From Escherichia coli (GTDB lineage: Bacteria; Pseudomonadota; Gammaproteobacteria; Enterobacterales; Enterobacteriaceae), in the NCBI GenBank assembly GCA_032372955.1, contig GCA_032372955.1_4725.1: 64,000 nucleotides of DNA. One strand, 5' to 3'. The notes beneath the pieces are model-generated. The model was not told where the DNA came from and ran no database searches. It saw only the letters and a list, made by a program, of their open reading frames with translations. This document shows, piece after piece, positions 5,297-58,251 of the stretch. The translations under genes were made by a program, and so were the position numbers. Position 1 is the first letter of the stretch, and every line of letters begins with the position of its first letter.

Positions 5297-7303
5297 ATGA
5301 TTACAACACAGACAACCACCACGAAACGTCGTGTGAGGGCACGCGAGCTTATGCATTGGCCGGTTGATGAGGTGTTCGAATGGGCACAGCCTAATGACCG
5401 TGTGTATATCGAGATGGACGATGGCGTTCATGAATTGCGTGCACGACGCATTTTCTTTAGTTACATGCACTGGTCTGTGCATCGCATGTATCCTGAGACC
5501 CCACTAACAAAAGAGAACCTGGTTGATAAACGCAAGTTCACAGCGGGTTCATCGGTTGCGTTGCAAAGCGCAGCGTATCGTCAATGCATGTATGCTTATC
5601 CACAAGAGAATCGTGAGGTTCTCTGGAAAGCATTGTTCGATATGTTTAACAATGTGTATAACTTCTTTACGTATGCGTTGGAGGAATACGTAACAACGAT
5701 TTGCGCGGACGATTTTTATCAGATTACCGTACACCCCGAAGTTAAGAAAATCATCGCCGAAGCGGAACCCACCCGCGAAGGTATCGAAAGCGCATACAAG
5801 AAACTGACAAAGGTACTGAGCACCGATAAAACGTTACACGCAAACCCTATTGCACGTGCGGTAAGAACCGAACACGTTTCGATCGGACAGGTGCTGCAGT
5901 GTATTGGGATGCGTGGATTCTTGACTGATATTAACTCCGAGATATTCCGTGACCCAGTGATGCGGTCATACGCAGCTGGTTTGATCTCTCTTCCAGACAG
6001 CTTGAAAGAAAGTCGTTCTGCGGCAAAATCGTTGCTGTTCAACAAAGAGCAGATTAAAAAGTCTGAATATTTCGGTCGTGAACTTCAGATAGCGACAGCG
6101 GTTGTACAACGACTCCATCCTGGTGATTGTGGTAGTAAAGAGACCATCCCGATGCCAATCCGTGATGAGACCGACCTGCGTGGCTTCCACGGTCGATTCA
6201 TTATTCGTGACGACGGTTCGTTGGTAGCGATACAACCACACATGAAAGAATTGATCGGCACCACAGTGCGCATGCGCTCTGTTAACTATTGTCATCATCC
6301 CGATCCTGCTGGGGTATGTACGACGTGTTACGGTGAATTAAGTCATAACTTCGCATTGACTGATAATGTCGGCGACGGTGCAGCGCGTACCTGTTCGCAA
6401 CAGGTAACGCAGAACATTCTTTCTACCAAACACCACGATGGTTCGTCAACGGTATCCACAGCACCAATCCCACCGGAATATCAACATATCCTTCGCTACA
6501 GCCAGAACATGAACGACATCAAACTCGCACGTGAGCTGAAAGGTAAACACGTGTTGATTAAGATGAAGTTAGGTCTTGCGAACATGTTGTACGACGTAGC
6601 GGAAGCGGAAGAAATCAGTTCGCTGATACCGCAACGTCTGTTTAACATGACGCTTTGCGATATGGAGATTTACGACAGGAAAGATGAAAGCTATCGTAAG
6701 CTCAAAGTCAATTTCGATTTCTGTGGTCGTCCTGTTGTACCGAGTAAAGCGTTTATCCGGTATCTCAAACGCCATAGCTGGGAAGTGACGTCTGACGGGA
6801 TTGTGATTTTCGACTTGAAACATTGGGACAATTCACGTACGTTATTCCAGATGCCGTTAATCCACAAAAACATGATGGAATACGCAAAAGAAATCGAACG
6901 TGAATTCAAATTCGGGAAAGGTTCTTTCAGTGCCGGATTCCTCTCGGAAGACGAAGCAACACCGGAAGAAGTTGCAAACGTGCTGTACTATTGGCATCGC
7001 CTGTGTGCTCAGCGTCTGCGAATGAACCTTTCGCATCTCGACGTTATTCTCTACGCCAGCATGATTCGTTCACCGCACACGAAAGATTATCGCATGCCGA
7101 AACAGGGAACAACACGATACTTCAGTACCTTCAAGAAGAACATGAACATGCGCTCCTTGAGTATGAAGTTCGCTCACCAAGAGCAGCTGGATGCGTTCCA
7201 AAACCCGAACAGTTATATCCCAACCATGAAGCCGGATCATCCGATCGACTACATGCTGTTACCGCGTAAAGAACCTAAACCGGAGGATGTAATCACGTTA
7301 TGA
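5297..7303 (+). CDS. divergent multisubunit RNA polymerase beta-prime-like subunit (C-terminal module with bridge-helix and trigger-loop-like segments)
   Basis: 668 codons. SAAKSLLFNKEQIKKSEYFGRELQIATAVV resembles the RpoC bridge helix, RLHPGDCG the following DDCGT, VRMRSVNYCHHPDPAGVCTTCYGEL the C-terminal Cys cluster, and RTCSQQVTQNILSTKHHDGS the trigger loop GTQLTMRTFHIGG. Confidence 0.6.
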   Translation: MITTQTTTTKRRVRARELMHWPVDEVFEWAQPNDRVYIEMDDGVHELRARRIFFSYMHWSVHRMYPETPLTKENLVDKRKFTAGSSVALQSAAYRQCMYAYPQENREVLWKALFDMFNNVYNFFTYALEEYVTTICADDFYQITVHPEVKKIIAEAEPTREGIESAYKKLTKVLSTDKTLHANPIARAVRTEHVSIGQVLQCIGMRGFLTDINSEIFRDPVMRSYAAGLISLPDSLKESRSAAKSLLFNKEQIKKSEYFGRELQIATAVVQRLHPGDCGSKETIPMPIRDETDLRGFHGRFIIRDDGSLVAIQPHMKELIGTTVRMRSVNYCHHPDPAGVCTTCYGELSHNFALTDNVGDGAARTCSQQVTQNILSTKHHDGSSTVSTAPIPPEYQHILRYSQNMNDIKLARELKGKHVLIKMKLGLANMLYDVAEAEEISSLIPQRLFNMTLCDMEIYDRKDESYRKLKVNFDFCGRPVVPSKAFIRYLKRHSWEVTSDGIVIFDLKHWDNSRTLFQMPLIHKNMMEYAKEIEREFKFGKGSFSAGFLSEDEATPEEVANVLYYWHRLCAQRLRMNLSHLDVILYASMIRSPHTKDYRMPKQGTTRYFSTFKKNMNMRSLSMKFAHQEQLDAFQNPNSYIPTMKPDHPIDYMLLPRKEPKPEDVITL

Positions 7304-8874
7304 AGTTAGCTCGTATCGACGTCTTCTCGCATGGCATGAGGCTGAGCGGATACGGACTTCGATTTGCCCATCTTATCGGCCATTACCTTCGAGACCGTTG
7401 TTTGCATCTGAGGAAACGGCGTGACCCTCGTACACGGAGAATGGTTACCGATACCATAAACACGTATGCCGCGGCAAGAAGCGATTATAGCGAGGTATAC
7501 TTACTCCGCGAACAGTTGAAATCGTTTTTGGATTTTATCTTTTCCCGAGGGATACGAAAAGAGTGGTTGGAAATCGTCTATCACGATCCGGTACCAGGTA
7601 AGGAAGTGGAGTTCGTAAAGAAATGGAAGTTTCCATGGCGTGAAGATCAGCAAGAATGGTTGGAGTACATGGACGGGGGTAAGGATACCCCCTTCAGAAT
7701 GAGCCTAAACACCGCTCAAACGGGGTCGGGTAAAACAGCCATGTCTCAGGAGATTACCTTCCGACGCGGTGTACGGACGGGCATCATTCTGTCGCCGAGA
7801 TACATGCCAGGCTGGCGAAGCTCACTACTGAACTTCTTCGGAATGGAACCAGGGGACGTTATCGAGATACGCGGGAACGCTAAGGAGGATCCACCGCATC
7901 CCGACATTCCTCGTTACAGTATGTTGGAGTTTCAAACCTTGGTTGAACAAGGTGAACTCGACTTCAAAATCGCATTGTTCTCCTTGAACATGTTCCAACG
8001 TTATATTGCGGACTACGAGAAGAATAACTGCGTTGCGCCATATGCCTTTCATCCCGCTGAGTTTTGGGAAAAGACCGGCATAGGTTTGCTGATTCATGAC
8101 GAGTGTCACGAAGCATTGCATTTCTTGTTTAAGGTCAAGTGTTACGCCAATATTCCGGAAATCATTTATCTGTCGGCAACAGCGGTATCCGATGATCCGT
8201 TTATCGAACAGATGCTGTATTTGATGTATCCGAAAGAAGCCCGTTATGCGAAAGGCGAATACAAGAAATACATTGCGGTAAATGCGGTAACGTACCGACT
8301 ACGCAGTACAGATAAAGTCAGATACAAAGGGTTTGGTGGAGCTTATTCGCACACGATATTCGAACAGTCTATCATGAAGAACAAGCAACTCAAACTCGCG
8401 TATTTTAACTTCATCTATACCGTTATTATCAAGGGTTTCATGAACCAGTATCAGGAAGGTATGAAGATGCTGGTGTATTGTGCGACCGTTGATATGTGTA
8501 AGTCGTTGTCGCATTATCTCAGTGAACGTATTCCTGAGCTAGAGATCGGTCCTTATACTGCTGAAGAAGATTTCATGGTCTTGCTGGATAACGATATTAG
8601 CGTTACGACAGTGAAATCGGCAGGTACCGGTATCGACCTTCCTGACTTGGTGATGACGTTCATGACGTTAGCGATGGGGTCACGAACCGGCAACATTCAG
8701 GTGTTGGGACGACTGCGTCAGCTGAAAGGGAAGTTTGAAGGAATGACGCCAACGTTCTGGTATCTGGTATGTACTTCTATCGAAGCGCACCGTAAATACC
8801 ATCAGCGCAAGGTGGAGTTCTTCAGCGACAAAGTGCTTACCCAGCGTGTTATCGATGAAGATTTTGAATTGTAA
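7300..8874 (+). CDS. SF2 helicase (DExH-type)
   Basis: ATGA overlap with upstream stop; Walker A AQTGSGKT, motif II HDECHE, motif VI-like QVLGRLRQ. Confidence 0.6.
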   Translation: MKLARIDVFSHGMRLSGYGLRFAHLIGHYLRDRCLHLRKRRDPRTRRMVTDTINTYAAARSDYSEVYLLREQLKSFLDFIFSRGIRKEWLEIVYHDPVPGKEVEFVKKWKFPWREDQQEWLEYMDGGKDTPFRMSLNTAQTGSGKTAMSQEITFRRGVRTGIILSPRYMPGWRSSLLNFFGMEPGDVIEIRGNAKEDPPHPDIPRYSMLEFQTLVEQGELDFKIALFSLNMFQRYIADYEKNNCVAPYAFHPAEFWEKTGIGLLIHDECHEALHFLFKVKCYANIPEIIYLSATAVSDDPFIEQMLYLMYPKEARYAKGEYKKYIAVNAVTYRLRSTDKVRYKGFGGAYSHTIFEQSIMKNKQLKLAYFNFIYTVIIKGFMNQYQEGMKMLVYCATVDMCKSLSHYLSERIPELEIGPYTAEEDFMVLLDNDISVTTVKSAGTGIDLPDLVMTFMTLAMGSRTGNIQVLGRLRQLKGKFEGMTPTFWYLVCTSIEAHRKYHQRKVEFFSDKVLTQRVIDEDFEL

Positions 8875-10171: not shown

Positions 10172-10188
10172 ATTAAATTGACATAAAC

Positions 10189-10244
10189 CTTCCTCCCCGC
10201 CCGTTATGGGTAGGGAGGAAGATATGCTAACTATTTTTTTTTTT
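10189..10244. terminator. bidirectional intrinsic terminator between convergent genes
   Basis: CTTCCTCCC(10189-10197)/GGGAGGAAG(10213-10221); plus side ATATGCTAAC then T11 run (10234-10244); minus side stem then TTTATGTCA. Confidence 0.65.
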
Positions 10245-11694
10245 ACTCGGTGAAGTGTGGTTTATAACCAGCCTGCCATGCGGCGGTCATGGCGTCGTAG
10301 TTGATGTGTGAAGTGCCTGCCGGGAATGTCCAACCACTCAGATCCTGATTGAACGCGAAGCACCCAGACAACATATTGTTTGCATTCTTAACAGACGAAA
10401 CATCCCACGAACCGATCGGTTGGTTGAATGTAGCGCAACCGTAGAAGAGGTCCTTCATTGAAGTAATGTTGCGGGTGTTCCATTTGGTGATGTTCACGTC
10501 GTTAATAACGCTGCATCGCGTAAACATACCTTCTAACGATGTCCAGTATGCCGGGATATAATCGGGAACCTTAGTTAAACTGTTCGCCGCAAGGAATGAT
10601 GGGGCCTTAGGTAATCCGTTGTTCCAGTCAACGATTTCAGTGATGTTACCACCGGTGAAGCTTTGCTGTACCTCTGTATCTTCAACATTGGTAGGGGTAC
10701 CCGTAGCGACGATCGTACGTTCCGTAGTGTCCGCATAAGTGTGCCGATATTCATTATCGCCTGAGTCCTGCGTCGTCTTATTCCCATCACCCCAATCGAT
10801 ATTGACATTTGTCCAACCATCTAATGACAATATAATGCTGCCGCCTTTTGTTTTAAGAACGTATTGGATTGGTTTAGGTGAAGCGTGACCAACAACCATA
10901 GCACCCTTAAGGCTACCGATAACCCAATCTTTCTTGGTGGTTACCAGTAACTCGGCGTCACCGTATGACCGCACCTCTACTCTACGAGCGTCTTCGCTTC
11001 CGTTAATTGTCTGCATTGCTTGTTGCATTTGTTCGCTGGTAATATCACCATAACGAACCATGACGTTCAGGATATTCTGGAAGTACGCAGCGTCAAGGAC
11101 ACCTTCAGTTGTTTCGGCATTTCCGTTTTCGCCGATAACCGAGGTTGTTGCTAACAGTAACGAACCAGATGTGTCAGCTTCAACGCCATCCAGATAAACC
11201 AGATTCGTAAGATTGGTTTGCTTGATGATCGTAATCAAGCTCAACGTATCGTTAGCGATATTGAACTGAAGATTACCAGCCCAAACATAAGACGTGTTTG
11301 CAACCGGAACCGTAATGTCTTTAATACCGGTGTCTTCGAACGTAATCTGCTTATTCAGCTCGGATTCGAGGAAGTCGACGGTTGTGTCGAATACCAATCC
11401 GTAACGTTCAGCGATCGTGTTGATGATATCCCTTACGGCGGTATCATTTTTAACGATAACCCGTAACGGGATCCCAGTGAAGTTTTTAGCGATGTCTCGA
11501 CGGATATAGGTCAGGGACTGCTCGTTAAAGTAACGGCTAGCATCGTTCGGTTTGATCGTAACAACAACCGTTCCGGGCACTTCGCTTACCGGTTCAGTTA
11601 GTTCAAATTTTACGTCGTCTAATGTCAGCTGTAAGCTGTTTTTGCTATTTACTAACGCGAGAAGTTCGTCTTTCCAGCTTTGTTTGAGTTTCAT
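10243..11694 (-). CDS. putative receptor-binding/tail-fibre family protein: shared N-terminal anchor domain plus C-terminal DUF285/BspA-like repeats
   Basis: N-terminal ~130 aa paralogous to ORFs 53839..54366 and 60057..62669 (WKDELL..RRDIAKNFTGIPLRVIV..ERYGLVFD); C-terminal FYGCATFNQPIGSWDVSSV..MLSGCFAFNQDLSGWTF matches the DUF285 repeat pattern. Confidence 0.55.
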   Translation of the reverse strand: MKLKQSWKDELLALVNSKNSLQLTLDDVKFELTEPVSEVPGTVVVTIKPNDASRYFNEQSLTYIRRDIAKNFTGIPLRVIVKNDTAVRDIINTIAERYGLVFDTTVDFLESELNKQITFEDTGIKDITVPVANTSYVWAGNLQFNIANDTLSLITIIKQTNLTNLVYLDGVEADTSGSLLLATTSVIGENGNAETTEGVLDAAYFQNILNVMVRYGDITSEQMQQAMQTINGSEDARRVEVRSYGDAELLVTTKKDWVIGSLKGAMVVGHASPKPIQYVLKTKGGSIILSLDGWTNVNIDWGDGNKTTQDSGDNEYRHTYADTTERTIVATGTPTNVEDTEVQQSFTGGNITEIVDWNNGLPKAPSFLAANSLTKVPDYIPAYWTSLEGMFTRCSVINDVNITKWNTRNITSMKDLFYGCATFNQPIGSWDVSSVKNANNMLSGCFAFNQDLSGWTFPAGTSHINYDAMTAAWQAGYKPHFTE

Positions 11695-11793
11695 TTATTC
11701 TGCCTTATTAAATAAGTACAACGCATATACGTCATACGATCTTGCAACAAATACAGCATAAAGCTCTGCATGATGTCAGGTAGAGCTTCTTAA

Positions 11794-13875
11794 TCACCAT
11801 TCCAAGAACGCAGGTCGTGGTTTAATATCGTATTCCGTGGTGTTTACGGTAACGTATTGATCGTATCCTTCCATCGCCAACGTTTCTTGCAAGTTAACAT
11901 CATCTTGCTTGTTCACAACATATTTGACACCCGTGATTTCTTCAACAAGCTGTCGACTTAACTCCATGATTTCGTGGCTACGTGTAGAAACGTTACCCTC
12001 GCTTCCCGTATCTAACATGAAACGATAAATCCGAACAGGTTGCGTTTGCCCTACACGGTCAAGACGGCTGATGGCTTGGATTTCATCGGATGAACGCCAT
12101 GGGTTGTTCAGGAAAAGACCGACATTACACATCAGCATCGGAACCCCTTCAGCTAAGCTATCAAATGTTGCGATAGCGGGACCGCTGTCAGGATCATCGC
12201 GTAAGCGAGCAAGTATCTGGTTGATGTTCTTGTTGGTCTTCCCGTAAATGGGTTCAGGTAAGAAACCCGCATCACGAAGCATGTTGTCGACGCGCTCAAC
12301 CACCTGAACGTACGACGTGAAGATCAACACTTTGGCTTCAGCGTTGTTGATGTACCCTTCGAAGTCGATGTACTCCACCATGTCGACATGACACCGAATG
12401 CGGGCTGCACCTAGAACACGGGCCAACGCTTCACCCTGAATTTTCAACCCAACGTACTTGATGACACTCTTGGCGTCTTTGAAAGCAATCCTTAAATCGG
12501 AAGGAAGAACCGGCATGATAGAACGTTTTTCAAACGCATTGCAGAACATCGCATCTTCTTTGTCTCTGACGGGATCGTAACCTTTCTGGAAACGAGCGAC
12601 GATCGATTCGTATCGAGATAGCTCTTTACGTTCTCCGTCGGTACGAATAGTCTTACGATAGTAGTCCAAGGCGTCATCAAAAATCTTTCTGTAGTGTCCC
12701 CAGTTATCCTTGTAATACTTCGCCCGATCGCGTACAAATATCGCCATGTCGTCGCGGATACTCGAGATGGTATAATCGCTGCCGTTAGGGAGCTTCACGT
12801 AAACATCCTGAACTTCCGGTCGGGTTTTACGATAAGCTTCTTTAGGTACAACATGCATCATGAACCCAAGACGATGTCTGAGGATATCGTTAGCGCGACT
12901 GCTGGTTAAACCGTAAATCGCTTTGAAGCTATCGACCACCTGTCCTTGGAACATCGGGTCGATACAACCTAAACATGGGATCATCTCAGAACCCATCTGT
13001 TTAACGGGCGTACCCGACATAAACAAGACATGCACATCCGCATTCATGGTCTGACGCATCGTCTGTACGAGATCAACCAATCGTTGGGAACGTTGGCTGT
13101 TCTTGTCGTTGAAGTTATGGCTTTCGTCAACCACGATCAACACGCGCTTCGCTGTGCGTTTATGCTTGATCATTACATCGTTTAATAAACCCATCGACTC
13201 GTAATGCAGAAAATAATACTTATCGCTTTTCTGCAACTGTGATGGTGGCATTGTATCTGACCAGAACGCGGTTTCTGTTGCGGGGTCAACGATGGCTTTG
13301 TTTACATCGGATTGCCATGCTGAACGCATGGTGTTCTTAGGACAGCAGACCACAAATACATCGACGTTCATTGCGGCGCTTAAAGCCAATGCGGTGATTG
13401 TTTTACCGGCACCAGCACCCATCGCACACACGTATCCTTTCAGTCGGTATTTAGGTACGTTACGGTTATAGATGTCGATAAACTCATCTTGATAATCGAA
13501 CAGGGAGAGCGTTAGCATTTTGTTCATGCGTGCTTTATCGAGGATTGCAGGTTGTTCGATTGTGGTATTTTGCAGCCACGTTTCCTGCAGCAGTACCTCA
13601 ATAAGGTGTTTCAGCATGCGTTTGTTACTGCGGGTATTCTTTGCTTCGATGATCGTTTCGAGAATATAAACGAAATCGGGAAGGTAAAAGTTGTGGAGAC
13701 TGAGTCCACTAGAAGAGAAATTACGAAACATATGTTTCATAAATCGGGAGGTACCCCATATTCGCTGAATGTCATCTGAAAGACGCCAGGCATCGATACC
13801 CCCGATATGCACGGTGTTGTTACTCTGATTTTTAACCGCTATTCGGTTCATTAAACGATTGATTCTATCCAACAT
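11794..13875 (-). CDS. SNF2/DEAD-like SF2 helicase
   Basis: Walker A GAGAGKT, motif II VVDESHN, motif III FMSGTP, motif VI AISRLDRVGQTQPV; ATG at 13875 preferred over GTG at 13923, which lies inside stem-loop 13911..13939. Confidence 0.6.
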   Translation of the reverse strand: MLDRINRLMNRIAVKNQSNNTVHIGGIDAWRLSDDIQRIWGTSRFMKHMFRNFSSSGLSLHNFYLPDFVYILETIIEAKNTRSNKRMLKHLIEVLLQETWLQNTTIEQPAILDKARMNKMLTLSLFDYQDEFIDIYNRNVPKYRLKGYVCAMGAGAGKTITALALSAAMNVDVFVVCCPKNTMRSAWQSDVNKAIVDPATETAFWSDTMPPSQLQKSDKYYFLHYESMGLLNDVMIKHKRTAKRVLIVVDESHNFNDKNSQRSQRLVDLVQTMRQTMNADVHVLFMSGTPVKQMGSEMIPCLGCIDPMFQGQVVDSFKAIYGLTSSRANDILRHRLGFMMHVVPKEAYRKTRPEVQDVYVKLPNGSDYTISSIRDDMAIFVRDRAKYYKDNWGHYRKIFDDALDYYRKTIRTDGERKELSRYESIVARFQKGYDPVRDKEDAMFCNAFEKRSIMPVLPSDLRIAFKDAKSVIKYVGLKIQGEALARVLGAARIRCHVDMVEYIDFEGYINNAEAKVLIFTSYVQVVERVDNMLRDAGFLPEPIYGKTNKNINQILARLRDDPDSGPAIATFDSLAEGVPMLMCNVGLFLNNPWRSSDEIQAISRLDRVGQTQPVRIYRFMLDTGSEGNVSTRSHEIMELSRQLVEEITGVKYVVNKQDDVNLQETLAMEGYDQYVTVNTTEYDIKPRPAFLEW

Positions 13876-14792: not shown

Positions 14793-15275
14793 ATGAGTAT
14801 CGTTGATTTAACATTAACAGAAGTTGGTGATGGTATTGAGGTTTCGATGAAAACCTCCGACGATCGCACCGTTGTTGCTAAACTGGAAGAAACCCTGTAC
14901 GGCAATTACGTGGTGGGCGTTTCAGGGAAGGTGAGTATGTATCGCCTGGCTGGTATTTTAAGCGTCTTTGATGGGGGATTGCTGCCGTCCGACCAACTCG
15001 AGCTCCAGAACAAATTGATCGACAATGACTTCTACACGGAAAATGTGAAAGTCTTTGGTTACAGCATGATGGGTGGTGTATTTAGCGCCGCGACGAACAC
15101 GCTTAACTTCGGTACCCAACAACTGATTCAGTTCAGTATCGAAAAGGGTAAACTGAAAACGGCGTGGAAAGGCAGCGCTGCATTCACACCAACCGATCTT
15201 CTGCTTACTTCCGCAGAACAGCATTTAAAAGCAAGTAAATCGGGTCGTGCGTTTCTGGAGCAATTAAATCAATGA
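14793..15275 (+). CDS. hypothetical protein
   Basis: 160 codons, GGAG RBS. Confidence 0.5.
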   Translation: MSIVDLTLTEVGDGIEVSMKTSDDRTVVAKLEETLYGNYVVGVSGKVSMYRLAGILSVFDGGLLPSDQLELQNKLIDNDFYTENVKVFGYSMMGGVFSAATNTLNFGTQQLIQFSIEKGKLKTAWKGSAAFTPTDLLLTSAEQHLKASKSGRAFLEQLNQ

Positions 15276-20573: not shown

Positions 20574-21899
20574 ATGATGAGCAAACTACTGTTTGAAATT
20601 AACGGGAAAGAATATACACCGCCCCAGGCAGTTATCGGTGCGTTATTACGATACACTGCATACCGGCGTCAAGGATGGTTGTTTGATATTGATGGACCGG
20701 CGTTTATTACAGCGATACAGGATGCTATCGCCCCGAAGAAATTATGCGATAATTACAATACTGAACTGTCGTACAAATTATCGCCTATGGTTCCATATGC
20801 GTCCTATAAGGAACTTTTGACGGGTATATGTTCGTATGAACAAGGTGGGTCCACATCGTACACGCGTGCGCTGGAATTCGTAGAAGAAATAGTGCGTCGA
20901 TTGAAAGTTGATCCGTATAACACGCGTAAGGGAATAATACAACTAATGGTGTACGATTTCTCGGCTAGCCAAGAAATCATCGCGGAGTATAATCCTTACT
21001 TACTTATACGTGCTTTCTTCTGGATCGATGCAGCGCTAGATGATCGTTCCGGACCATGCCGTTTAGCGATTCATGCCGGTGAACGCCAGTTGAAGCAATG
21101 GTTGGAAGATTGCGATATCAATTTGCATGGCATGACGATACCCGATTTCTTCGAAGACTATTTTTCGTTATCGGGACTCGATGATGCTGTAGTAGAACTG
21201 AAACCTACGGATACCGATCCGGTTGTCGTCGAACTTAAAACCGAATCGGATACCAGCAACCATTCGTTCGAGCCGTTAGCGGTAGAGAAGCCTGCATTTT
21301 GTTTAGATGTTGAAAACCTTAGTTTGGAAAAGAATGGAGTATTGCTGGAAATCGGTATCGTGTTCTTCGATCTGGCTAATCCAGAATCCATTGTTAACGG
21401 TCCGCGTATAGATATCTTCCCTGACGTTCATGGTCAAATCGCTGACGGCGGTCGTATCAGTGAATCAACAGTAGAATGGTGGCAAACCAAAGCACCAAAG
21501 GAAGCGCGCGACTATTGTTTTCAACATTGTAAGGCAATGGGTTATAAAGAAGCCATCGCCGAAGTAAATGCGTTCGTCAACAGTATTCGTGACAGAATGA
21601 CTGAATACTACGGTAAAGATACCTTCTATTATCTTGCTCGTGGTGAAACAGATTGGCCTCAATTAGAGCATTGGTTCCGTAAAGCGGGCTTTAAGCCAGT
21701 TTGTCGTTATAACCAGGTTCAGGATATCCGTTCGATGATTGCTGCGTATCAAGACAAACCGGTATCCATCTTAGGCACCAAAGAGTATCCAGACATGGGT
21801 ATTCCGCTGATCCGTCATACCGCTATCGGTGACGCAATCATGGATGCGTACGACGTTGCGTTAGCGCGAAGCATGGCGACGTCTAAGCTACTGAAGTGA
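20574..21899 (+). CDS. protein with C-terminal DEDDh-type 3'-5' exonuclease-like domain
   Basis: FCLDVENLS (Exo I D-x-E-like) and HTAIGDAIMDAYD (Exo III H-x4-D-like) in the C-terminal half. Confidence 0.45.
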   Translation: MMSKLLFEINGKEYTPPQAVIGALLRYTAYRRQGWLFDIDGPAFITAIQDAIAPKKLCDNYNTELSYKLSPMVPYASYKELLTGICSYEQGGSTSYTRALEFVEEIVRRLKVDPYNTRKGIIQLMVYDFSASQEIIAEYNPYLLIRAFFWIDAALDDRSGPCRLAIHAGERQLKQWLEDCDINLHGMTIPDFFEDYFSLSGLDDAVVELKPTDTDPVVVELKTESDTSNHSFEPLAVEKPAFCLDVENLSLEKNGVLLEIGIVFFDLANPESIVNGPRIDIFPDVHGQIADGGRISESTVEWWQTKAPKEARDYCFQHCKAMGYKEAIAEVNAFVNSIRDRMTEYYGKDTFYYLARGETDWPQLEHWFRKAGFKPVCRYNQVQDIRSMIAAYQDKPVSILGTKEYPDMGIPLIRHTAIGDAIMDAYDVALARSMATSKLLK

Positions 21900-22713: not shown

Positions 22714-23316
22714 ATGACTGTTTATTTGAAAATGATTAACGGGCATTCCAATGAAATTGCCGACGCTAATCGTCCTTTCAATTTATATCCCGTTCCTGAC
22801 GGAGCTTGTATTGAATTCAATCGTGATCCTACAGGGAATCCGTTCATTAATGTCGTCATGAGCGATAAAACAAAAAGATCGTTTTATCCGACAGGTAATA
22901 CCTATGTCGTTGAGGATAAAACGACGGTATCCAAGTTTGAGTTCGAAGAAAAATTTAGCGCTGAAGATCGTAAAGAGACGTTAGATTTTCTTCAGAGTTT
23001 GGATTCATATCAGAATTTACCGGCGGATATTAAATGCTTAAAAATCGAAGATATGCTGTTAGCATTAAAACATACACCTCTTAAATGTTCAGAGAAAACG
23101 CCACGCGTGTTTAATATCCGTCTATTGAAATACTGTACACAACCGGTTAGAGTGAAAGAGAGTCAAACTCCATTGCTGGAAAAGTTATTCAGCGATTGTG
23201 GTTATCCCCACGTTGGATTTATTTACCCGGAACCAGAAAAATCATCAACCGAAAGAACGGTAATGCACATTGTTGTTAAATTACCTTCGGCGGAGAATAT
23301 CCTGTCGGGTTGGTGA
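22714..23316 (+). CDS. hypothetical protein, paralog family A (member 1)
   Basis: N-terminus MxVxLKMxxG..NAxPFxLxxVPD..IEFNRD..G shared with the next two genes. Confidence 0.55.
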   Translation: MTVYLKMINGHSNEIADANRPFNLYPVPDGACIEFNRDPTGNPFINVVMSDKTKRSFYPTGNTYVVEDKTTVSKFEFEEKFSAEDRKETLDFLQSLDSYQNLPADIKCLKIEDMLLALKHTPLKCSEKTPRVFNIRLLKYCTQPVRVKESQTPLLEKLFSDCGYPHVGFIYPEPEKSSTERTVMHIVVKLPSAENILSGW

Positions 23317-30735: not shown

Positions 30736-31713
30736 ATGGCTTCTGTTGGCCCAATCGATAAGACACGCGATGCGGTAAAGGCGTTGCTCGAAAGAATTTA
30801 TTTTGAGCTTGCGAATGCCGAACATCCAAGCGTGAGTCTTTTCGATGATAAACTCACAGCGATTAATAACGTTCATCCAATGCTGTATCAGGATCTCCTT
30901 ACGTCGTGGAAACCGATGGGTGTTTTCGCGAACGCTTTTTCAGATACCGTCGTAGCCAGCGGCTTTGAAAAACCGAAGCTACCTTTTGTCTATGAGCCGT
31001 CGGTCGATCCAAGACGGGAGCGTCTGGGTGTTTTAACGCACGCTCTGATTGACAGTATTGGTTATTATCTTTCCTCTGAATGGACAGCTAAATATACCGA
31101 GCTGTTAGACGAATACGAGCTGTGGCGTAATCAGATCTTAACGGATGCGGAGAAGAAAGCATACGCGATCGCGTTGGCGGAGAAAACCCGCGGGGACGTT
31201 GGTCGCTTAATCCACGATTTTTACGCGGTTTTGAAACCAACCTACTACGAAACAAAACGTCAACTGACCTGGGAAGAAGCACAGGCGTTGATGCAGAGCG
31301 CAGAAACAGCGGATGATATTTCGGGTATAATCCACGATTACTGTATGTCAAGAATCCTGCTGGATAAAGGCAATCAGAAATACGTTCGTGAGGTTCCGCT
31401 TCCCAATAACGCGATGGGGATCGCAAACGAGATTTTCGAGTTCCTGAACGAATGGAATCCGCCGTTACTTGCGATTACGTATATCTGCGATGATATTCTT
31501 ACCGAGGATCTGTTCCTTCCATTGTTAGGTGAAGCGTCGCTGCGACGTTATTCCCAGACGTTCAAGAACAGCGCAACGATGGCATCGACCGTACCGGTTA
31601 GTTTACCACGTCGTCGTAAAATGCTTACGGTATCCGCTGGCAAGATTAACCTCTTAGTGTTGTATTATGCTGTAAGAAACGGCCTGCCAACATTAATTTT
31701 CAGGAAAAAGTAA
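30736..31713 (+). CDS. hypothetical protein
   Basis: 325 codons, GAGGATAA RBS. Confidence 0.55.
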   Translation: MASVGPIDKTRDAVKALLERIYFELANAEHPSVSLFDDKLTAINNVHPMLYQDLLTSWKPMGVFANAFSDTVVASGFEKPKLPFVYEPSVDPRRERLGVLTHALIDSIGYYLSSEWTAKYTELLDEYELWRNQILTDAEKKAYAIALAEKTRGDVGRLIHDFYAVLKPTYYETKRQLTWEEAQALMQSAETADDISGIIHDYCMSRILLDKGNQKYVREVPLPNNAMGIANEIFEFLNEWNPPLLAITYICDDILTEDLFLPLLGEASLRRYSQTFKNSATMASTVPVSLPRRRKMLTVSAGKINLLVLYYAVRNGLPTLIFRKK

Positions 31714-46746: not shown

Positions 46747-46780
46747 CCCTTCCTGCGTAATGCAGGAAGGGTTTATGCTG
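46747..46780 (+). terminator. stem-loop plus TTTATGCTG
   Basis: CCCTTCCTGC(46747-46756) GTAAT GCAGGAAGGG(46762-46771) TTTATGCTG(46772-46780). Confidence 0.55.
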
Positions 46781-46825
46781 TTAAACTGACTAAATGTAAT
46801 CATCCTAATAAAGAAGGAAATCATC

Positions 46826-49192: not shown

Positions 49193-50023
49193 ATGTATCC
49201 TGAAGCATCGTGGCAGGAAGAAGCGTTATCTAAAATAAACGCTTATCTCCAGCATCCGTTGTCTCTGTCAGACATTACGTTAACGCCAGCCTGGTATGGT
49301 GCATCAGGTCGGTTACGCCTTTCTATAGCCCCCACACCACAATCGGTTTACTACGTCGAAGACCCCGTACAGGTTTATCTTCAACGTCGCGATATTAATA
49401 AGCTCTTTATCAAACACCAACCTTTTATTGTCGTTGCTGATATGACGACGACAGCAGACTGCTTAACGCAGCTGTTTAAGAAGTATGGGTTGAAGATCGA
49501 TTTAACGATCTTTGATTCTTCAGCGTTAGCGTTACCGGTTAAATTTGAAAGCGGTGAGAAAACCATATCTGTTCCCGTTCTTTCTGACGCATCAGCATCG
49601 TGGTACGGTACGTTTCAATTCCTCGCACGAAAAGATGTAAGTGCCGATATTAGCGAACTGATTACGGTACGAGAACCGCTAACCTCGTATTATCCAGAAG
49701 ATAGTAAACAAGGGGATTTCCACACATTCAGTACATACGGCATCAAGCTAAATATACCGCCGCAAGATGCGATACGTTCGATGTCGGTTGGAGATACTCC
49801 CGAAGGATACAACGCATTCCGTTTAGCCTCATCGCTGATTTCAATGAGTTATACCTCAGCTTGGGAACTCATCACAACAGCCAGTGTCGTTTATAATGGA
49901 AAAGTTGCCGATGCGAACGATTTAGATGTTCCAATACTTCCGTCGTTCGGAAGCTCTGTTCTGGTGTTAAAACCTCATTCCGATAGCGGCGTCAGCAGCA
50001 AACTTTATTTTAGTTACGATTAA
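49193..50023 (+). CDS. hypothetical protein (possible virion/tail component by position)
   Basis: 276 codons, GAGGT RBS; first gene after terminator 49076..49134. Confidence 0.5.
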   Translation: MYPEASWQEEALSKINAYLQHPLSLSDITLTPAWYGASGRLRLSIAPTPQSVYYVEDPVQVYLQRRDINKLFIKHQPFIVVADMTTTADCLTQLFKKYGLKIDLTIFDSSALALPVKFESGEKTISVPVLSDASASWYGTFQFLARKDVSADISELITVREPLTSYYPEDSKQGDFHTFSTYGIKLNIPPQDAIRSMSVGDTPEGYNAFRLASSLISMSYTSAWELITTASVVYNGKVADANDLDVPILPSFGSSVLVLKPHSDSGVSSKLYFSYD

Positions 50024-50036
50024 GGTGGAGTAAATA

Positions 50037-53000
50037 ATGGCGACATTCTTACCTGACGATAAGCAGGATCTGGTTGACCAACTCAATATACTAAATAAAA
50101 CAGATATCCCGGTTGATGGTATCGCAGTCACTGCTGTTGGCGATAGTCAAAAACTTGATGGTGTTGGAAAATACACGGGGACGGTTACGGTTAATAAACC
50201 AAAACGGTCATTCGCGACATTGTTTCCGTTCGGCGCGATCATGAAAAAAGAAACCGGTGATGAGGATGTTACTGGTCGCGCTGCGCTCGCGTTGTTGAAC
50301 GAGCAGTTCCATCTGACGATTGCAGAAAGTTACTTCACAGAAGAATCTTTAAATGCGACATACCAGTTAGGGACATGGAACAGCATCTTCGCACAAATCG
50401 CTTTAGAACCAACCGAGGATAACCCGTACTGGAAAGATACGCTGTTCATCTCAATGTATCGGTCAACGCTAGGTGCTTTGGAGACATATAGTGCAAGCGC
50501 ATCATCGAGTATTTATGTTGATTTAGGATCGGCTAGAAAAGCGTTCGATCTGAATCGTACTGGCGTATACAAGTTACCTTTACCAACAACGTCCGGTAGT
50601 GTACCGAACCGTTATGAATGGTGTCAGTTATTAGAGATTACCCCATCGGTGGTTGGTGGACAGATTGATTGGAGCAACTACTTAACGCTGGAGCCGTTAA
50701 CGCCGACGTTCCCAGTGATGGAAATCAATACAACCTATTACTTCTTGCTCTGGACATTTAACCGTAAAGATTGGCACGTGAAACAAATCACCGCATCGGA
50801 GCGTTATAACGATGTTGCTCAACTTATCGGTAAATGGGTGCTTACGGCGTCGCCGGTTAATTTCGTTGGTTATGGTCATGCAAGATTCTTAACCCGAAAT
50901 ACGGGAACGTTTACCAATCCAGAAACCGATCATTACGTGTTAAATGAAAGCGGGGTCATGGTAAACAACCGTCATTTCATTGCAGCGACACGACAAGAAG
51001 CGCAACCGGATGGTGACGCAACAACAGAAGGACAGTCGCTGTTAATTCTGGGTGCTGGTATATTCAGTCATACAACGGATGATACCAAGCTTAAAGCGCA
51101 CTATCTCACATTAGCAGAGTCATCGTTCGATGCGTATATAAAAGCGTTCTATGCGGACCTTGAACCACCGGATACACCGGCACGCTGGATCGCTAACTGG
51201 ATTGTTAATGGTAAACAACCCGTGCTGGCCCATTATCCTCTTGCAAAAGACGATTACCCAACACACGGTGGTTTCCATGACACCGCGGTTACATTTACCA
51301 ACGGTATTGGAAAAATAACACACGGCGCACCCACGTTCGGGGAATACATGGATCTTGTTGTTCAGGTCTATGAGGGTAAACTCGGCTGGCAGAATTTGAA
51401 CGCGGATGTGTTCAAAACCAATGATGATGGGACAATTGACTGGGATACAAAGGGTACGGTGTTTCCTATCGAGAAAGTTGCGTTACGCACAAAACGTTAC
51501 GTAAGTGCGGACGGGGACGATCTTGAAGCGTGTACTGACGATGAAGTAGGTACCATCGTACTCAAAGATAAATCCGTCAACGGCTCTTACTTGGTTGCAT
51601 GGGCACCCCGTGTTCCTGTTGAATACGGTGGATACCTCATCAAAACAAACGAGTGTCAGCATAACCGACCGATCCAGGTGCCGGTCACCAGAGACTACAT
51701 GGGAAACGCGTCAGACGCTGAACAGTGGTTTTGTGAAGCAGCCTACACCTTATACCGTTTAACGCAGCAGGAGCGTTATCAGAAAGCGTACAAGGCATCG
51801 TTGTTTACGATTGAAGAATATACCCGTATCGACGCCAATGATAAGTTCTTCCGTCAGGTAAAAGGAACCGATCGTTACGACACCGACGGTATCGCTTACA
51901 CGTATACATACCCATCGAAAGCACCGTTTACAATCACGCGTGATACCGATGGCTGGATCGTGATTCAAGCATCTTCAGCACAAATTTACCTTGAGCAGCA
52001 GGCCATTCCGTTCCGCGTCAATCGTGATTCAATTCTTCGTGTAACCTGCGGAGGTAAAGATACAGCAGGTGTTGCAATTCCGGTTGAGATCTCATTATCG
52101 CTTTCTTTGGACAAAACCGAAGCGAACGCCAAAACGTACAAGCTGGTTTTACCTTCCAGCGTTGAACCGAAAGGATGGGATTTCAAAATAGGCTCGTTGA
52201 TTCCTGCTGACGCGGTTGATGAAGCTTCAACACCAACCGGTGATGCTGTTACAGGTTCTGTGTTGATATCGGCTGATAAAGTCGGCTGGAAAGATGATGT
52301 CGCCATCACAACAGAATTCAGCGAAGCGGTGGAAGATTCCTGGGATGGGTTGTTCCTAAAAGCGCAGCTTACTGCAGCAGGCGGGCAATTTGAATTCAAT
52401 CCAACCGCAAAACAGATCGTAAGGCAGGTCAGTTATTTCGCGTCGATTGACTACAACGTTCGTGTAGAAGATGCAAATGGTTGGCGATGGTGGTATATGC
52501 TACCGGCTACCACAGCAAGAAATACATTGACGCTTTCGGCGAACGGATGGACGCTCTCAGGGTATCAACCCGGACACGCTGATACTGACCCTAGACCTTC
52601 CGCACCCGTGTGGGGCGATGGCTCAACTGAAATTCTGTTCTTGCCTGACGACAGCGATATCGCTGAAGGGGTATTTAAGCTTTACGCCATCAACAATCCA
52701 CCGTCAACATACACCACCGATGACGGATATACCATGTTGTTTACGTTAAAAGCAACCTTTGAGGCAGAGGGAACATTACGTGTTGGTGATTGCACGATTG
52801 TCAACCAACGTCTCGATCCGTTGCCTTATACTCCGGGTATTATTCCGTTCTCGAACAACTATATCCCTAACGCACCGACGTTCGACAGTTGGCGTGGTCA
52901 GCCTTATCCCGGCTACCAGCATCCATGGGTTTTCCTGGATATGGACGTACCGGCTGAACGACGTGACCTCATGATTCAGAACGTTGTGAATTTCTGGTAT

Positions 53001-53633
53001 GATTCACAGCAGTGGTATTATCAGAAATTCGGGGTTTTAGGGCCGGGTGCGAGTGCGTACGTGTGGGATCGTTGGGATGCGCCAAGCGGATCAAAAGTTA
53101 ATGATTTTACGATGTACCACTTCGGCGATCAGACGGCATGGTCTGGTTATCAGCCGAGGGCTTTCTTTTCAGCGGTGAGGCTTTATGCTGGACTGCTCGA
53201 TCGTGGTTTGGCTGTCCCTGAGAAGTTATCCACTTACATCAGTCACTGGATCGATTTCTTGTTTACGTATCAACAGGAAAACGCTTATCAATCTCCTACG
53301 GATTTTCCGATGGATAAACCTCCTGCTTTTATTCCTAATGACTTTACTGGTCACATGGCAGGATTATGGTTGGCGGGTGCGTCGTTAGCAATGTTGTACG
53401 GACATCCCAACGATAAAGGTTATTCTGTTGCTGTTAATGCTTATAACGAAATCGTTGGGAACTACATCAACCATTACACCGTTGACGACGTAATGAATGG
53501 TGGGTGGAGTCCTGCACCAGATAGCGCTAATCTCGGTAGAGACGGAATGTATTTTGGTTTCTGGAGTGGGGAGATCCTCCGAGGATTAGGCTATTATATT
53601 GCCTTATTACGTGATGTAAAACCAACAATTTAA
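50037..53633 (+). CDS. large putative virion structural protein (tail/baseplate-associated)
   Basis: 1198 codons, AAGGTGGAG RBS; immediately upstream of fibre genes; no enzymatic motif identified with confidence. Confidence 0.55.
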   Translation: MATFLPDDKQDLVDQLNILNKTDIPVDGIAVTAVGDSQKLDGVGKYTGTVTVNKPKRSFATLFPFGAIMKKETGDEDVTGRAALALLNEQFHLTIAESYFTEESLNATYQLGTWNSIFAQIALEPTEDNPYWKDTLFISMYRSTLGALETYSASASSSIYVDLGSARKAFDLNRTGVYKLPLPTTSGSVPNRYEWCQLLEITPSVVGGQIDWSNYLTLEPLTPTFPVMEINTTYYFLLWTFNRKDWHVKQITASERYNDVAQLIGKWVLTASPVNFVGYGHARFLTRNTGTFTNPETDHYVLNESGVMVNNRHFIAATRQEAQPDGDATTEGQSLLILGAGIFSHTTDDTKLKAHYLTLAESSFDAYIKAFYADLEPPDTPARWIANWIVNGKQPVLAHYPLAKDDYPTHGGFHDTAVTFTNGIGKITHGAPTFGEYMDLVVQVYEGKLGWQNLNADVFKTNDDGTIDWDTKGTVFPIEKVALRTKRYVSADGDDLEACTDDEVGTIVLKDKSVNGSYLVAWAPRVPVEYGGYLIKTNECQHNRPIQVPVTRDYMGNASDAEQWFCEAAYTLYRLTQQERYQKAYKASLFTIEEYTRIDANDKFFRQVKGTDRYDTDGIAYTYTYPSKAPFTITRDTDGWIVIQASSAQIYLEQQAIPFRVNRDSILRVTCGGKDTAGVAIPVEISLSLSLDKTEANAKTYKLVLPSSVEPKGWDFKIGSLIPADAVDEASTPTGDAVTGSVLISADKVGWKDDVAITTEFSEAVEDSWDGLFLKAQLTAAGGQFEFNPTAKQIVRQVSYFASIDYNVRVEDANGWRWWYMLPATTARNTLTLSANGWTLSGYQPGHADTDPRPSAPVWGDGSTEILFLPDDSDIAEGVFKLYAINNPPSTYTTDDGYTMLFTLKATFEAEGTLRVGDCTIVNQRLDPLPYTPGIIPFSNNYIPNAPTFDSWRGQPYPGYQHPWVFLDMDVPAERRDLMIQNVVNFWYDSQQWYYQKFGVLGPGASAYVWDRWDAPSGSKVNDFTMYHFGDQTAWSGYQPRAFFSAVRLYAGLLDRGLAVPEKLSTYISHWIDFLFTYQQENAYQSPTDFPMDKPPAFIPNDFTGHMAGLWLAGASLAMLYGHPNDKGYSVAVNAYNEIVGNYINHYTVDDVMNGGWSPAPDSANLGRDGMYFGFWSGEILRGLGYYIALLRDVKPTI

Positions 53634-53838: not shown

Positions 53839-54366
53839 ATGCGTTCACTTTACCCGCCATGGAAAGACGAACTGATTACGTTGATAAACAGACGTAACAG
53901 TAGCGTGTTCAGCAGCTCCGATCTTACATTAACCTTGGATGGGAGTTCTGGTGCTAACAGGGCAAAAGTGATCGTCACAGCAAATGAAGGAACAAAGTGG
54001 TGTGGTGAAAGTTTTATCGTTTACGCCCGACGCGATATCGCGAAGGCATTTTTAGGAATACCGGTAAAAATCGTTTTAGAGTCCGTTGAGACAACAACTA
54101 TACATGCGATTATTCGGGCGATTTCAGATCAATACGGGTTCGTCTTTGACCCCGACGTTGATTTTGATGCGGTTACCCTTGCCACTGTTATTGATTTTCG
54201 TGACGATATATCCAAAAAGATTTCTATCCCCATCGCGAATACCTCCATGGTTTGGCGTGGTCGATTGGATCTTACTGTGACAAACCAACACGATGTATCT
54301 CCGGCTCATCTTTACGCCGGTGCCACAACCGTCATTGGTGATATCATCACTATTTATCCAGGATAA
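53839..54366 (+). CDS. short protein carrying the shared receptor-binding-protein N-terminal anchor domain
   Basis: ATG 53839 after GGAGGAGGG RBS; WKDELITLIN..ARRDIAKAFLGIPVKIVLE..DQYGFVFDPDVDF paralogous to N-termini of 10243..11694 and 60057..62669. Confidence 0.5.
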   Translation: MRSLYPPWKDELITLINRRNSSVFSSSDLTLTLDGSSGANRAKVIVTANEGTKWCGESFIVYARRDIAKAFLGIPVKIVLESVETTTIHAIIRAISDQYGFVFDPDVDFDAVTLATVIDFRDDISKKISIPIANTSMVWRGRLDLTVTNQHDVSPAHLYAGATTVIGDIITIYPG

Positions 54367-57300: not shown

Positions 57301-58251
57301 CAAACGGCAAGGACGATTGGTGGTGTCTCATTTAACGGGACGGCAAATATCAACCTGCCTGGGGTAAACACCACCGGTAACCAAGACACGACCGGTAATG
57401 CTGCCACGGCGACAAAACTGAAGACAGCCCGCACCATTGGTGGGGTGTCTTTCGACGGTAGTGCGAACATCAATCTGCCTGGTGTTAACGCCGCGGGAAA
57501 CCAGAATACATCAGGAAACGCAGCAACGGCAACGAAGTTGCAGACCGCGCGCACGATTAACGGTAAACCTTTCGATGGTACAGCTAATATCACGTTAGCA
57601 GCTAAAGATCTTGGTTTAGCCGATTCTAGTGGATATGTCGGGCGTTTACTGAATATGCGGGTTTTCACATCGTCAGGGACGTACACCCCAACACAAGGAA
57701 CAAAACGGATTAGAGTAACGATAACCGGTGGTGGCGGTGGCGGTGGCGGTTGTCAGGCTTATTCCAACAGCGAAACGTTTTTTGGCGCTGGAGGAGGAGC
57801 TGGCGGAACAGTAATTTCGGTTATAACGGTAGCAGCTGCTAGTTATTCTGTTATAATTGGTTCTGGTGGTTCCGGTGGCTCTGGGGCGACGAATGGGAAC
57901 GGGGGTGGAGATAGTAAATTTGCATCCCTGCTAACTGCTCCCGGCGGGCAAGGCGCAGGAAAAACAACTGTCACAAACACTGGCGGTGGCTATGGGGGCG
58001 CACCTACTACCGGGGATATACGCATTCCGGGTGGAGACGGTAGCGATGGACAAGCCGGTACTCTTGCCGCCGGTGGATGTGGGGGTGCGTCATATTGGGG
58101 CGGTGGCGGTCGCGCTGGTGTTGGCACCGCCCATAACGGCCTCGCGCCTGGTTCGGGTGGTGGTGGTGCTTACGATAACTCTTACTCAGGAACCGCTAAG
58201 CCTGGTGGGCGTGGCGCTAATGGGATTTGCATCATCGAGGAGTTTATGTAA
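54373..58251 (+). CDS. long tail fibre protein (P2 gpH-like N-terminus, tandem 37-aa fibre repeats, Gly-rich C-terminal tip)
   Basis: N-terminus [42 protein letters not shown] resembles phage tail-collar fibre domain; 13 repeats of [40 protein letters not shown]; C-terminus rich in GG/GGxGG. Confidence 0.85.
56028..57600 (+). repeat. in-frame tandem repeats (111 nt / 37 aa) inside the tail-fibre gene; boundaries approximate
   Basis: Nine consecutive units then four more after a non-repeat spacer; protein near-identical, DNA mostly diverged at synonymous sites, but an identical ~40-nt stretch (CAGGTAACCAAAACACCACGGGGAATGCGGCAACCGCCACGA) recurs near 56247 and 57252. Confidence 0.8.
57727..57750 (+). 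repeat. (GGT/GGC)8 glycine-codon microsatellite in the fibre tip
   Basis: GGTGGTGGCGGTGGCGGTGGCGGT encodes an 8-Gly run. Confidence 0.6.

Follow-up and report, generated by a model that had tools for sequence, protein, structure and literature searches.

A DUF7941-DUF285 fusion protein of a Goslar-like jumbo phage as a candidate virion-associated accessory adhesin

It is not yet settled how nucleus-forming jumbo phages locate their hosts, since even cryo-electron microscopy (cryo-EM) structures leave the peripheral baseplate and fibres unresolved. The closest described system is Escherichia phage vB_EcoM_Goslar, for which an April 2026 bioRxiv preprint reports a cryo-EM structure and a virion proteome (10.64898/2026.04.21.720040). 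Its authors name ten proteins of the DUF7941 family (gp22, gp23, gp31, gp33, gp34, gp86, gp91, gp92, gp93 and gp161), three of which, gp86, gp92 and gp161, continue after an N-terminal DUF7941 domain into carbohydrate-binding, glycoside-hydrolase or leucine-rich repeat (LRR) domains. Here we analyse the counterpart of gp161 in a 64,000-nucleotide stretch of an Escherichia coli assembly (GCA_032372955.1, contig GCA_032372955.1_4725.1), hereafter the window, where it is encoded on the minus strand at 10243..11694. We propose, with a probability of roughly 0.6, that this protein is a virion-associated accessory adhesin that inserts into DUF7941 filaments and makes first contact with a variable bacterial surface through a beta-sandwich and an LRR domain. 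The host-recognition idea itself is not new, having been put forward in the preprint for Goslar gp161, which is nearly identical; what we add is a sharp conservation boundary within the protein, its hypervariable surfaces, cassette exchange with the tail module and the existence of broken alleles.

The published work on Goslar provides the framework for this proposal. Purified gp22 forms filaments in vitro, AlphaFold 3 docks the linker of one protomer head-to-tail on the following protomer's N-terminal domain, and the gp126-gp127 heterodimer of PhiKZ fits an unexplained density at the outer peripheral baseplate; host recognition is ascribed, as a proposal, to a “DUF7941 fibre cloud” anchored at the baseplate (10.64898/2026.04.21.720040). 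According to their Table S4, gp161 was detected in CsCl-purified Goslar virions by 27 peptides at 53.8% coverage, equivalent to ∼111 copies per virion (range 74-174), together with ∼2144 copies of gp23, ∼577 of gp22, ∼112 of gp33, ∼43 of gp90, ∼5 each of gp92, gp93 and gp86, and ∼1 of gp91. An earlier note on the window, made from the sequence alone, had predicted that the protein is attached to the virion, and its 96%-identical Goslar ortholog was indeed recovered with virions, though in a preparation with known contaminants.

The window derives from a Goslar-like chimallivirus and is colinear with positions 93138..156820 of the Goslar genome at ∼95% nucleotide identity. Within it, the open reading frame (ORF) at 10243..11694 is a complete coding sequence of 483 amino acids (aa), from an ATG start to a stop codon, and is by sequence and map position the ortholog of Goslar gp161 (HOV27_gp161, YP_009820846.1), with 95.9% nucleotide and 95.4% amino acid identity. 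The protein is identical to WP_257259263.1, whose gene lies on a contig of 237,848 bp from an E. coli assembly. The tail-fibre module, gp86-gp93, lies ∼42 kb away on the opposite strand, so the earlier note was right in placing the gene on the other strand and far from the tail genes.

The first 185 residues (11140..11694, minus strand) comprise the DUF7941 N-terminal globular domain and linker, a conserved assembly module. The match to DUF7941 (PF25613) extends over aa 4-185 with E=1e-24 and 88 bits against a gathering cut-off of 27, and covers profile positions 5-191 of 276; positions 192-276, corresponding to the C-terminal globular domain, are unmatched, and this domain is also missing from gp86, gp92 and gp23 (10.64898/2026.04.21.720040). 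Two plus-strand ORFs of the tail-fibre module pass the same gathering score: the gp86 paralog at 60057..62669 (150 bits), an 870-aa protein in which DUF7941 is combined with N4-gp65-like NCTSP_N and TIM-barrel domains, and the gp91 paralog at 53839..54366 (58 bits), a 175-aa protein that consists of the DUF7941 N-terminal domain only and lies directly upstream of the tail-fibre gene gp90 (54373..58251, assigned from the Goslar map). The gp161 N-terminus shares 36% identity with the former over 215 aa (E=5e-38) and 38% with the latter over 148 aa (E=4e-30). The similarity to these two proteins on which the earlier note was built is therefore real, but it extends over ∼150-215 residues rather than the 130 given there. 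A hidden Markov model (HMM) built from the gp161, gp86 and gp91 proteins also picks up the 276-aa gp93 paralog (49193..50023, plus strand; E=7.8e-15), which the preprint likewise counts as a DUF7941 protein, while gp92, a 1198-aa tail protein assigned to phrog_2871 (50037..53633, plus strand), has only a weak Pfam match to DUF7941 at its N-terminus (E=0.0088).

Independent evidence links the N-terminus to a protein placed in a solved virion structure, since a profile of ten DUF7941 N-terminal domains matches PHIKZ127 in PDB entry 9xqd (chain 0) with E=1e-5 over 147 profile positions. The N-terminal-domain profile alone found PhiKZ gp127; a profile of the whole family had no match among PDB sequences. 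The DUF7941 profile matches that carry a name all belong to jumbo phages or to contigs of 222-251 kb, and in jumbo phages of Erwinia, Cronobacter and Salmonella the annotation given to the homologs is virion structural protein. From the N-terminal region shared with the tail-module paralogs the earlier note derived attachment at the same virion site; the DUF7941 module is probably no simple plug for a single site, however, as the preprint argues for a module that polymerises head-to-tail. By inspection we saw neither a signal peptide nor a lipobox, the N-terminus MKLKQSWKDELLALVNSKNS being polar and part of DUF7941. A profile search for fusions of DUF7941 with other domains returned short DUF7941-only proteins only, probably through a prefilter effect, and our catalogue of such fusions rests on a protein-database search, one example on a distant contig and the preprint. 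In Erwinia phage EarlPhillipIV a DUF7941 homolog is found within a 13-gene tandem array (L010, 114509-127060), every gene of which encodes a product of 270-460 aa annotated as a virion structural protein, which suggests large paralog expansions of the family in other chimalliviruses. We had considered a conserved helicase-adjacent locus in distant chimalliviruses and rejected it, as the homologs of EarlPhillipIV and Serratia phage PCH45 lie in paralog arrays of structural genes.

Beyond the linker, an AlphaFold2 model built from a 57-sequence alignment is confident for aa 180-483, with a predicted local distance difference test (pLDDT) score mostly of 85-98. All parts of this region are encoded on the minus strand. 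A middle region (aa 186-270; 10885..11139), in which helices at aa 202-237 are followed by short strands, leads into a beta-sandwich (aa 271-358; 10621..10884; pLDDT 83-96) carrying a WGDG motif at aa 301-304 of which W301, G302, D303 and G304 are nearly invariant. The protein ends in an LRR-type solenoid (aa 359-483; 10246..10620) close to the folds of 4fs7, 4h09 and 6mlx and composed of two degenerate capping turns, three canonical repeats and a variable C-terminal cap (aa 463-483). The canonical repeats are 26 residues long and in register (aa 385-410, 411-436 and 437-462; 10309..10542), contain the motifs FYGCATFNQPIGSWDVSSV and MLSGCFAFNQDLSGWTF quoted in the earlier note, and are of a type labelled PARCEL by NCBIfam. 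A Pfam scan matches DUF285 (PF03382) at aa 385-456 with E=1.2e-21 and 77.1 bits against a cut-off of 25, in agreement with the three DUF285-type repeats that the earlier note had recognised. The single-repeat model TIGR02167 found one repeat in gp161 at 26.4 bits, below its cut-off of 30, and scored 73.8 bits on P0099, a paralog with seven repeats described below.

The two halves of the protein differ greatly in their conservation. A protein-database search returned 472 relatives of gp161, and many contigs of 235-248 kb, with labels of E. coli, Salmonella, Shigella or Enterobacter, carry the DUF7941-DUF285 fusion; as to presence in related phages, which the earlier note had asked about, it occurs in all Goslar-like relatives found. 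Among orthologs of 483-485 aa, residues 1-185 are 92-99% identical and the regions after aa 185 only 30-60%, bearing out the idea of a conserved N-terminal module joined to a swappable C-terminal one. Column entropy across 54 orthologs stays at 0.04-0.17 up to aa 180 and jumps abruptly at aa 181, which, with the mosaic identities among relatives, makes the middle region from there on the likely recombination joint. The most variable stretch comprises the sandwich loops at aa 305-345, with further entropy peaks at aa 364-372 and among the final 20 residues, as well as at repeat positions 4-5, 8-9 and 11-12, which together make up one face of the solenoid. The same pattern is seen against Goslar: 18 of the 22 amino acid differences fall after aa 185, including five in the last 20 residues, and the ratio of non-synonymous to synonymous substitution rates (omega) is 0.04 in the N-terminal domain (4 non-synonymous and 25 synonymous differences) and 0.49 in aa 186-483 (20 and 11, respectively; Fisher p=7e-5 for the contrast). 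Against a second relative, L005, the synonymous divergence (dS) of the C-terminal part is three to four times the N-terminal value, which points to recombinational replacement and not to point mutation alone. In L005 and L007 the proteins flanking gp161 are 93-100% identical to those of the window and the C-terminal part of gp161 only 74% and 41%, respectively, making it a hypervariable island among very conserved replication and transcription genes.

A second line of evidence comes from the tail module of two Goslar-like genomes, L004 (GCA_961210045.1, 235,874 bp) and L008 (ERZ19210725, 241,206 bp). Both encode, between their gp94 and gp91 homologs, a 584-aa DUF7941-DUF285 protein with seven repeats (L004:6001-7755 and L008:8001-9755), which fills the slot held by gp93 and gp92 in the window (49193..53633), immediately upstream of the tail-fibre gene. 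A gp161 ortholog is still present at the helicase locus of L004; gp86 is missing from this genome, and its tail fibre is of another kind (967 aa, with a Peptidase_S74 domain). A more distant contig carries a 775-aa DUF7941-DUF285 version with DUF7941 proteins on both sides. Given that gp93 and gp92 are replaced and that gp86 and the fibre differ in L004, the genes around the tail fibre that join DUF7941 to other domains look like a hotspot of cassette exchange; as far as can be seen, the placement of a DUF7941-DUF285 protein in the tail module is not described in the preprint. With a hypervariable sequence between conserved flanks and a paralog in the tail module, the C-terminal part of gp161 appears, from these comparisons, to behave like a receptor-binding domain. 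The tail fibre gp90 of the window itself shows a repeat-rich centre (55634..57600) that is only ∼82% identical to Goslar, compared with ∼95% for the rest of the window, for which reason its repeat number and sequence are taken to be drifting; at 1292 aa it is 32 aa shorter than the 1324-aa Goslar protein.

Taken together with the published structure, these observations suggest the following sequence of events. The DUF7941 head and conserved linker of gp161 would co-assemble with abundant DUF7941 proteins, which in Goslar are gp22 and gp23 (encoded outside the window) and for which head-to-tail polymerisation into long, flexible filaments with their root at the peripheral baseplate has been proposed. 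The beta-sandwich and short BspA/PARCEL-type LRR solenoid would be displayed on these filaments, where the unit could bind a variable enterobacterial surface structure and provide a first, reversible and multivalent contact that precedes commitment by the tail fibre and baseplate. If the mass spectrometry (MS) figures are right, ∼111 copies of gp161, set against ∼2,700 of gp22 and gp23 combined and six proposed anchor points, suggest that it is incorporated along the filaments rather than capping them. As a protein that joins a filament module specific to chimalliviruses with an LRR domain that is hypervariable, gp161 would offer a concrete handle on host range among Goslar-like phages, which occur in assemblies of E. 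coli, Salmonella, Shigella and Enterobacter. For work on host range, the comparative data point to a swap boundary around aa 181-270 and to the sandwich loops at aa 305-345, the variable face of the repeats and the C-terminal cap as the first residues to examine.

Several points weigh against a filament-borne adhesin. The AlphaFold2 monomer has a pLDDT below 50 for aa 65-175, the linker and core of DUF7941, a value that would fit folding upon a partner protein but is no evidence for it. The gene lies outside the tail and baseplate module, amid replication and transcription genes, its neighbours in the window being an SNF2 helicase, an SF2 helicase and the RNA polymerase beta subunits. Chimallin (∼126 copies) and PhuZ were found in the same virion preparation, for which the authors state that large non-virion assemblies co-purified, and no Goslar cryo-EM density is assigned to any DUF7941 protein (10.64898/2026.04.21.720040). 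The literature we searched contained no binding, adsorption or genetic test of gp161 or of any phage DUF285 protein. Broken alleles also circulate in natural populations: a CAA-to-TAA nonsense change at codon 277 in L012:4001-5452 divides the gene into a 276-aa head and a distinct 193-aa ORF with the DUF285 part, and a 2-nucleotide insertion at about codon 152 in L013 and L014:3543-4816 leaves a 153-aa head and a 271-aa remainder. This frameshift falls exactly at the boundary of head domain and linker, ∼63 residues of the beta-sandwich are deleted in addition, and the allele is present on eight contigs from independent samples. Judged by these sequences gp161 would be dispensable in at least some settings, which is why we regard it as accessory, as many host-range factors are. 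The genomic neighbourhood, the weakness in the window of the hairpin that separates gp161 from the helicase gene, and the similar abundance of chimallin and PhuZ would each suit a non-structural protein, cytoplasmic or injected, that is expressed together with the adjacent helicase and transcription genes, whose LRR has an intracellular binding partner of host or phage origin, and whose MS signal stems from co-purifying assemblies. We nevertheless consider this improbable, as DUF7941 is homologous to PhiKZ baseplate proteins, to the most abundant virion proteins of Goslar and to annotated structural proteins of jumbo phages, a paralog of the same architecture sits inside the tail-fibre module, and binding proteins exposed at a surface typically combine a conserved head with a hypervariable tail. 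Another explanation accepts gp161 as a virion component and makes it a decoration that binds non-host material (mucus glycoproteins, extracellular or biofilm matrix, non-host particles), holding the phage in the habitat of its hosts, in the manner of the Ig-like Hoc of T4, with no part in host choice. Such a role would accord with a copy number of ∼111, far above the roughly 6-fold stoichiometry of gp86, gp92 and gp93 (∼5 each), with the dispensability of gp161 in natural variants and with the origin of Goslar-like contigs from gut or faecal Enterobacteriaceae assemblies. It is well established that bacterial LRR proteins of the BspA family bind host extracellular-matrix proteins. We think decoration unlikely all the same, because beside the tail fibre a tail-module protein can give way to a paralog built like gp161, and because hypervariability between otherwise near-identical phages is what would be expected from the diversity of bacterial surfaces. 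An accessory adhesin acting in host recognition is thus the reading we prefer.

A separate question concerns the origin of the DUF285 module, for which the earlier note suggested horizontal acquisition of a surface-adhesion module typical of Mycoplasma and Firmicutes and foreign to enterobacterial phage fibres. Horizontal spread of DUF285/PARCEL repeats between widely differing microbes is on record (PMC2996958), and the best full-model match in NCBIfam is a Mycoplasma bovis lipoprotein family, although far below its cut-off (52.7 versus 500 bits). Recent capture of the module from such a surface-protein gene onto an existing anchor is nonetheless very improbable in our estimation. A compositional test was negative: the GC content of the gene is 0.462 compared with 0.459 +/- 0.023 for the genes of the window, its genome-referenced codon adaptation index is 0.768 compared with 0.756 +/- 0.032, and the DUF285 segment is rich in GC at third codon positions (0.61) and not AT-rich. 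The fusion is furthermore old, since it occurs throughout the Goslar-like relatives found, with paralogs only 47% identical. The strongest organism-named matches outside the Goslar group are to phages of Gram-negative bacteria and to giant viruses, and the top non-Goslar matches in a large protein database are metagenome proteins together with one protein from a Bacteroidetes and one from an archaeal metagenome-assembled genome. Packaged DUF285 proteins are present in particles of the giant virus AaV (PMC7507832). Nor is the module foreign to enterobacterial phages, as a tblastn search with the C-terminal part matched 108 phage records, including phages of Serratia, Klebsiella, Citrobacter, Kosakonia, Edwardsiella, Pantoea, Vibrio, Aeromonas and Pseudomonas. 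Many of these matches are jumbo phages, often with many copies per genome, and Citrobacter phage Tr1 (Stephanstirmvirinae) encodes a Big_2-DUF285 protein directly after one with Tail_spike_N. A broader claim, to which we would give somewhat less than even odds, is that the PARCEL/BspA-type LRR represents a widespread and unrecognised class of phage receptor-binding domain, that in Goslar-like phages around a hundred copies per virion are carried on micron-long filaments of co-polymerised DUF7941 proteins as a multivalent “fishing net”, and that cassettes are traded between the gp93/gp92 slot and the gp161 locus, retuning host range.

At the locus itself, gp161 is preceded by gp160, the SNF2 helicase gene (11794..13875, minus strand; Goslar map). 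A hairpin between the two genes (11760..11789, minus strand) has a folding energy of -10.4 kcal/mol (z -1.15) in the window and -25.8 kcal/mol (z -5.8) in Goslar, where it is annotated as a terminator; alignment with Goslar attributes the weakening to two non-compensated substitutions. A strong hairpin just after the gp161 stop codon (10187..10223; -26 kcal/mol, z -5.3), with an A-run and a T-run at its sides, is likely a bidirectional terminator shared with the convergent gp162 gene. A promoter search found sigma-70-like sites at chance level (6 versus 4.0 expected), and a conserved block upstream of gp161, ATCGTATGACGTATA, occurs once in the window. The motif TTTATGCTGT is enriched, with 20 occurrences at up to one mismatch compared with 4.3 expected. 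Its two exact copies (11753..11762 and 46772..46781) are intergenic and stand immediately after a GC-rich hairpin; the motif could be a phage terminator tail or could serve the non-virion RNA polymerase as a TATG-type promoter, and its position after hairpins perhaps favours the former.

Other features of the window concern the wider neighbourhood. The ORF at 14793..15275, ortholog of Goslar gp158 (160 aa, function not known), shares the non-structural neighbourhood of gp161, and in the preprint table gp158 is listed at ∼926 copies per virion; the ORF at 30736..31713 is the ortholog of gp126 (325 aa, 97.8% identical), an appendage gene outside the gp86-gp93 module whose product is the collar-filament protein of Goslar (10.64898/2026.04.21.720040). 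A collar or whisker role for gp161 was dropped, as the preprint gives the Goslar collar filaments to gp126. Segments at 20574..21899 and 22714..23316 are replaced or inserted relative to Goslar, and encode a 441-aa ORF just 60% identical to the Goslar gp147 exoribonuclease and an additional 200-aa ORF that is a gp143 paralog (28% identical). The SF2 DNA helicase gp164 (7300..8874) has 524 aa here and 753-876 aa in some relatives (L007:8823-11084, L012:6822-8831 and L014:6187-8816), where a weak LAGLIDADG_3 match suggests that the longer forms probably carry an intein or homing-endonuclease insertion that the window lacks.

Set beside known systems, the protein is closest to Goslar gp161, with which it shares the locus after the SNF2 helicase, the length of 483 aa and the DUF7941-LRR architecture, the upstream hairpin being weaker in the window. 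It belongs by its N-terminus to the same family as the abundant DUF7941 virion proteins gp22 and gp23 of Goslar and gp126 and gp127 of PhiKZ, but unlike full DUF7941 proteins it has helices, a beta-sandwich and an LRR solenoid in place of the C-terminal globular domain. The 584-aa proteins of the tail module (P0062 and P0099) have the same three-part architecture and ∼47% identity to gp161, rising to 54-57% in the N-terminal domain; they differ in having seven repeats instead of three and in lying in the tail-fibre module, and can occur alongside a gp161 ortholog within one genome. Like the modular receptor-binding proteins of other phages, such as T7 gp17-type fibres and the tailspike sets of phi92 and the Ackermannviridae, gp161 combines a conserved N-terminus with an exchangeable C-terminus. 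In contrast to these, it has neither a trimeric fibre nor a beta-helix tailspike fold, its gene is outside the tail module, its copy number is ∼111 compared with 3-18, and its proposed attachment is by co-polymerisation rather than by docking to a baseplate adaptor. Finally, gp161 shares its 26-residue repeats, the F..C..FNq..s.W signature and the LRR-type solenoid with the bacterial and viral LRR proteins of the DUF285/PARCEL/BspA-like group (PF03382, TIGR02167), which occur in Mollicutes, Listeria and Bacteroidetes and in many large viruses. Unlike the bacterial surface proteins of this group, however, it has just three canonical repeats and, by inspection, no signal peptide or lipobox, and its LRR module is tethered to a phage assembly domain rather than to the cell envelope.

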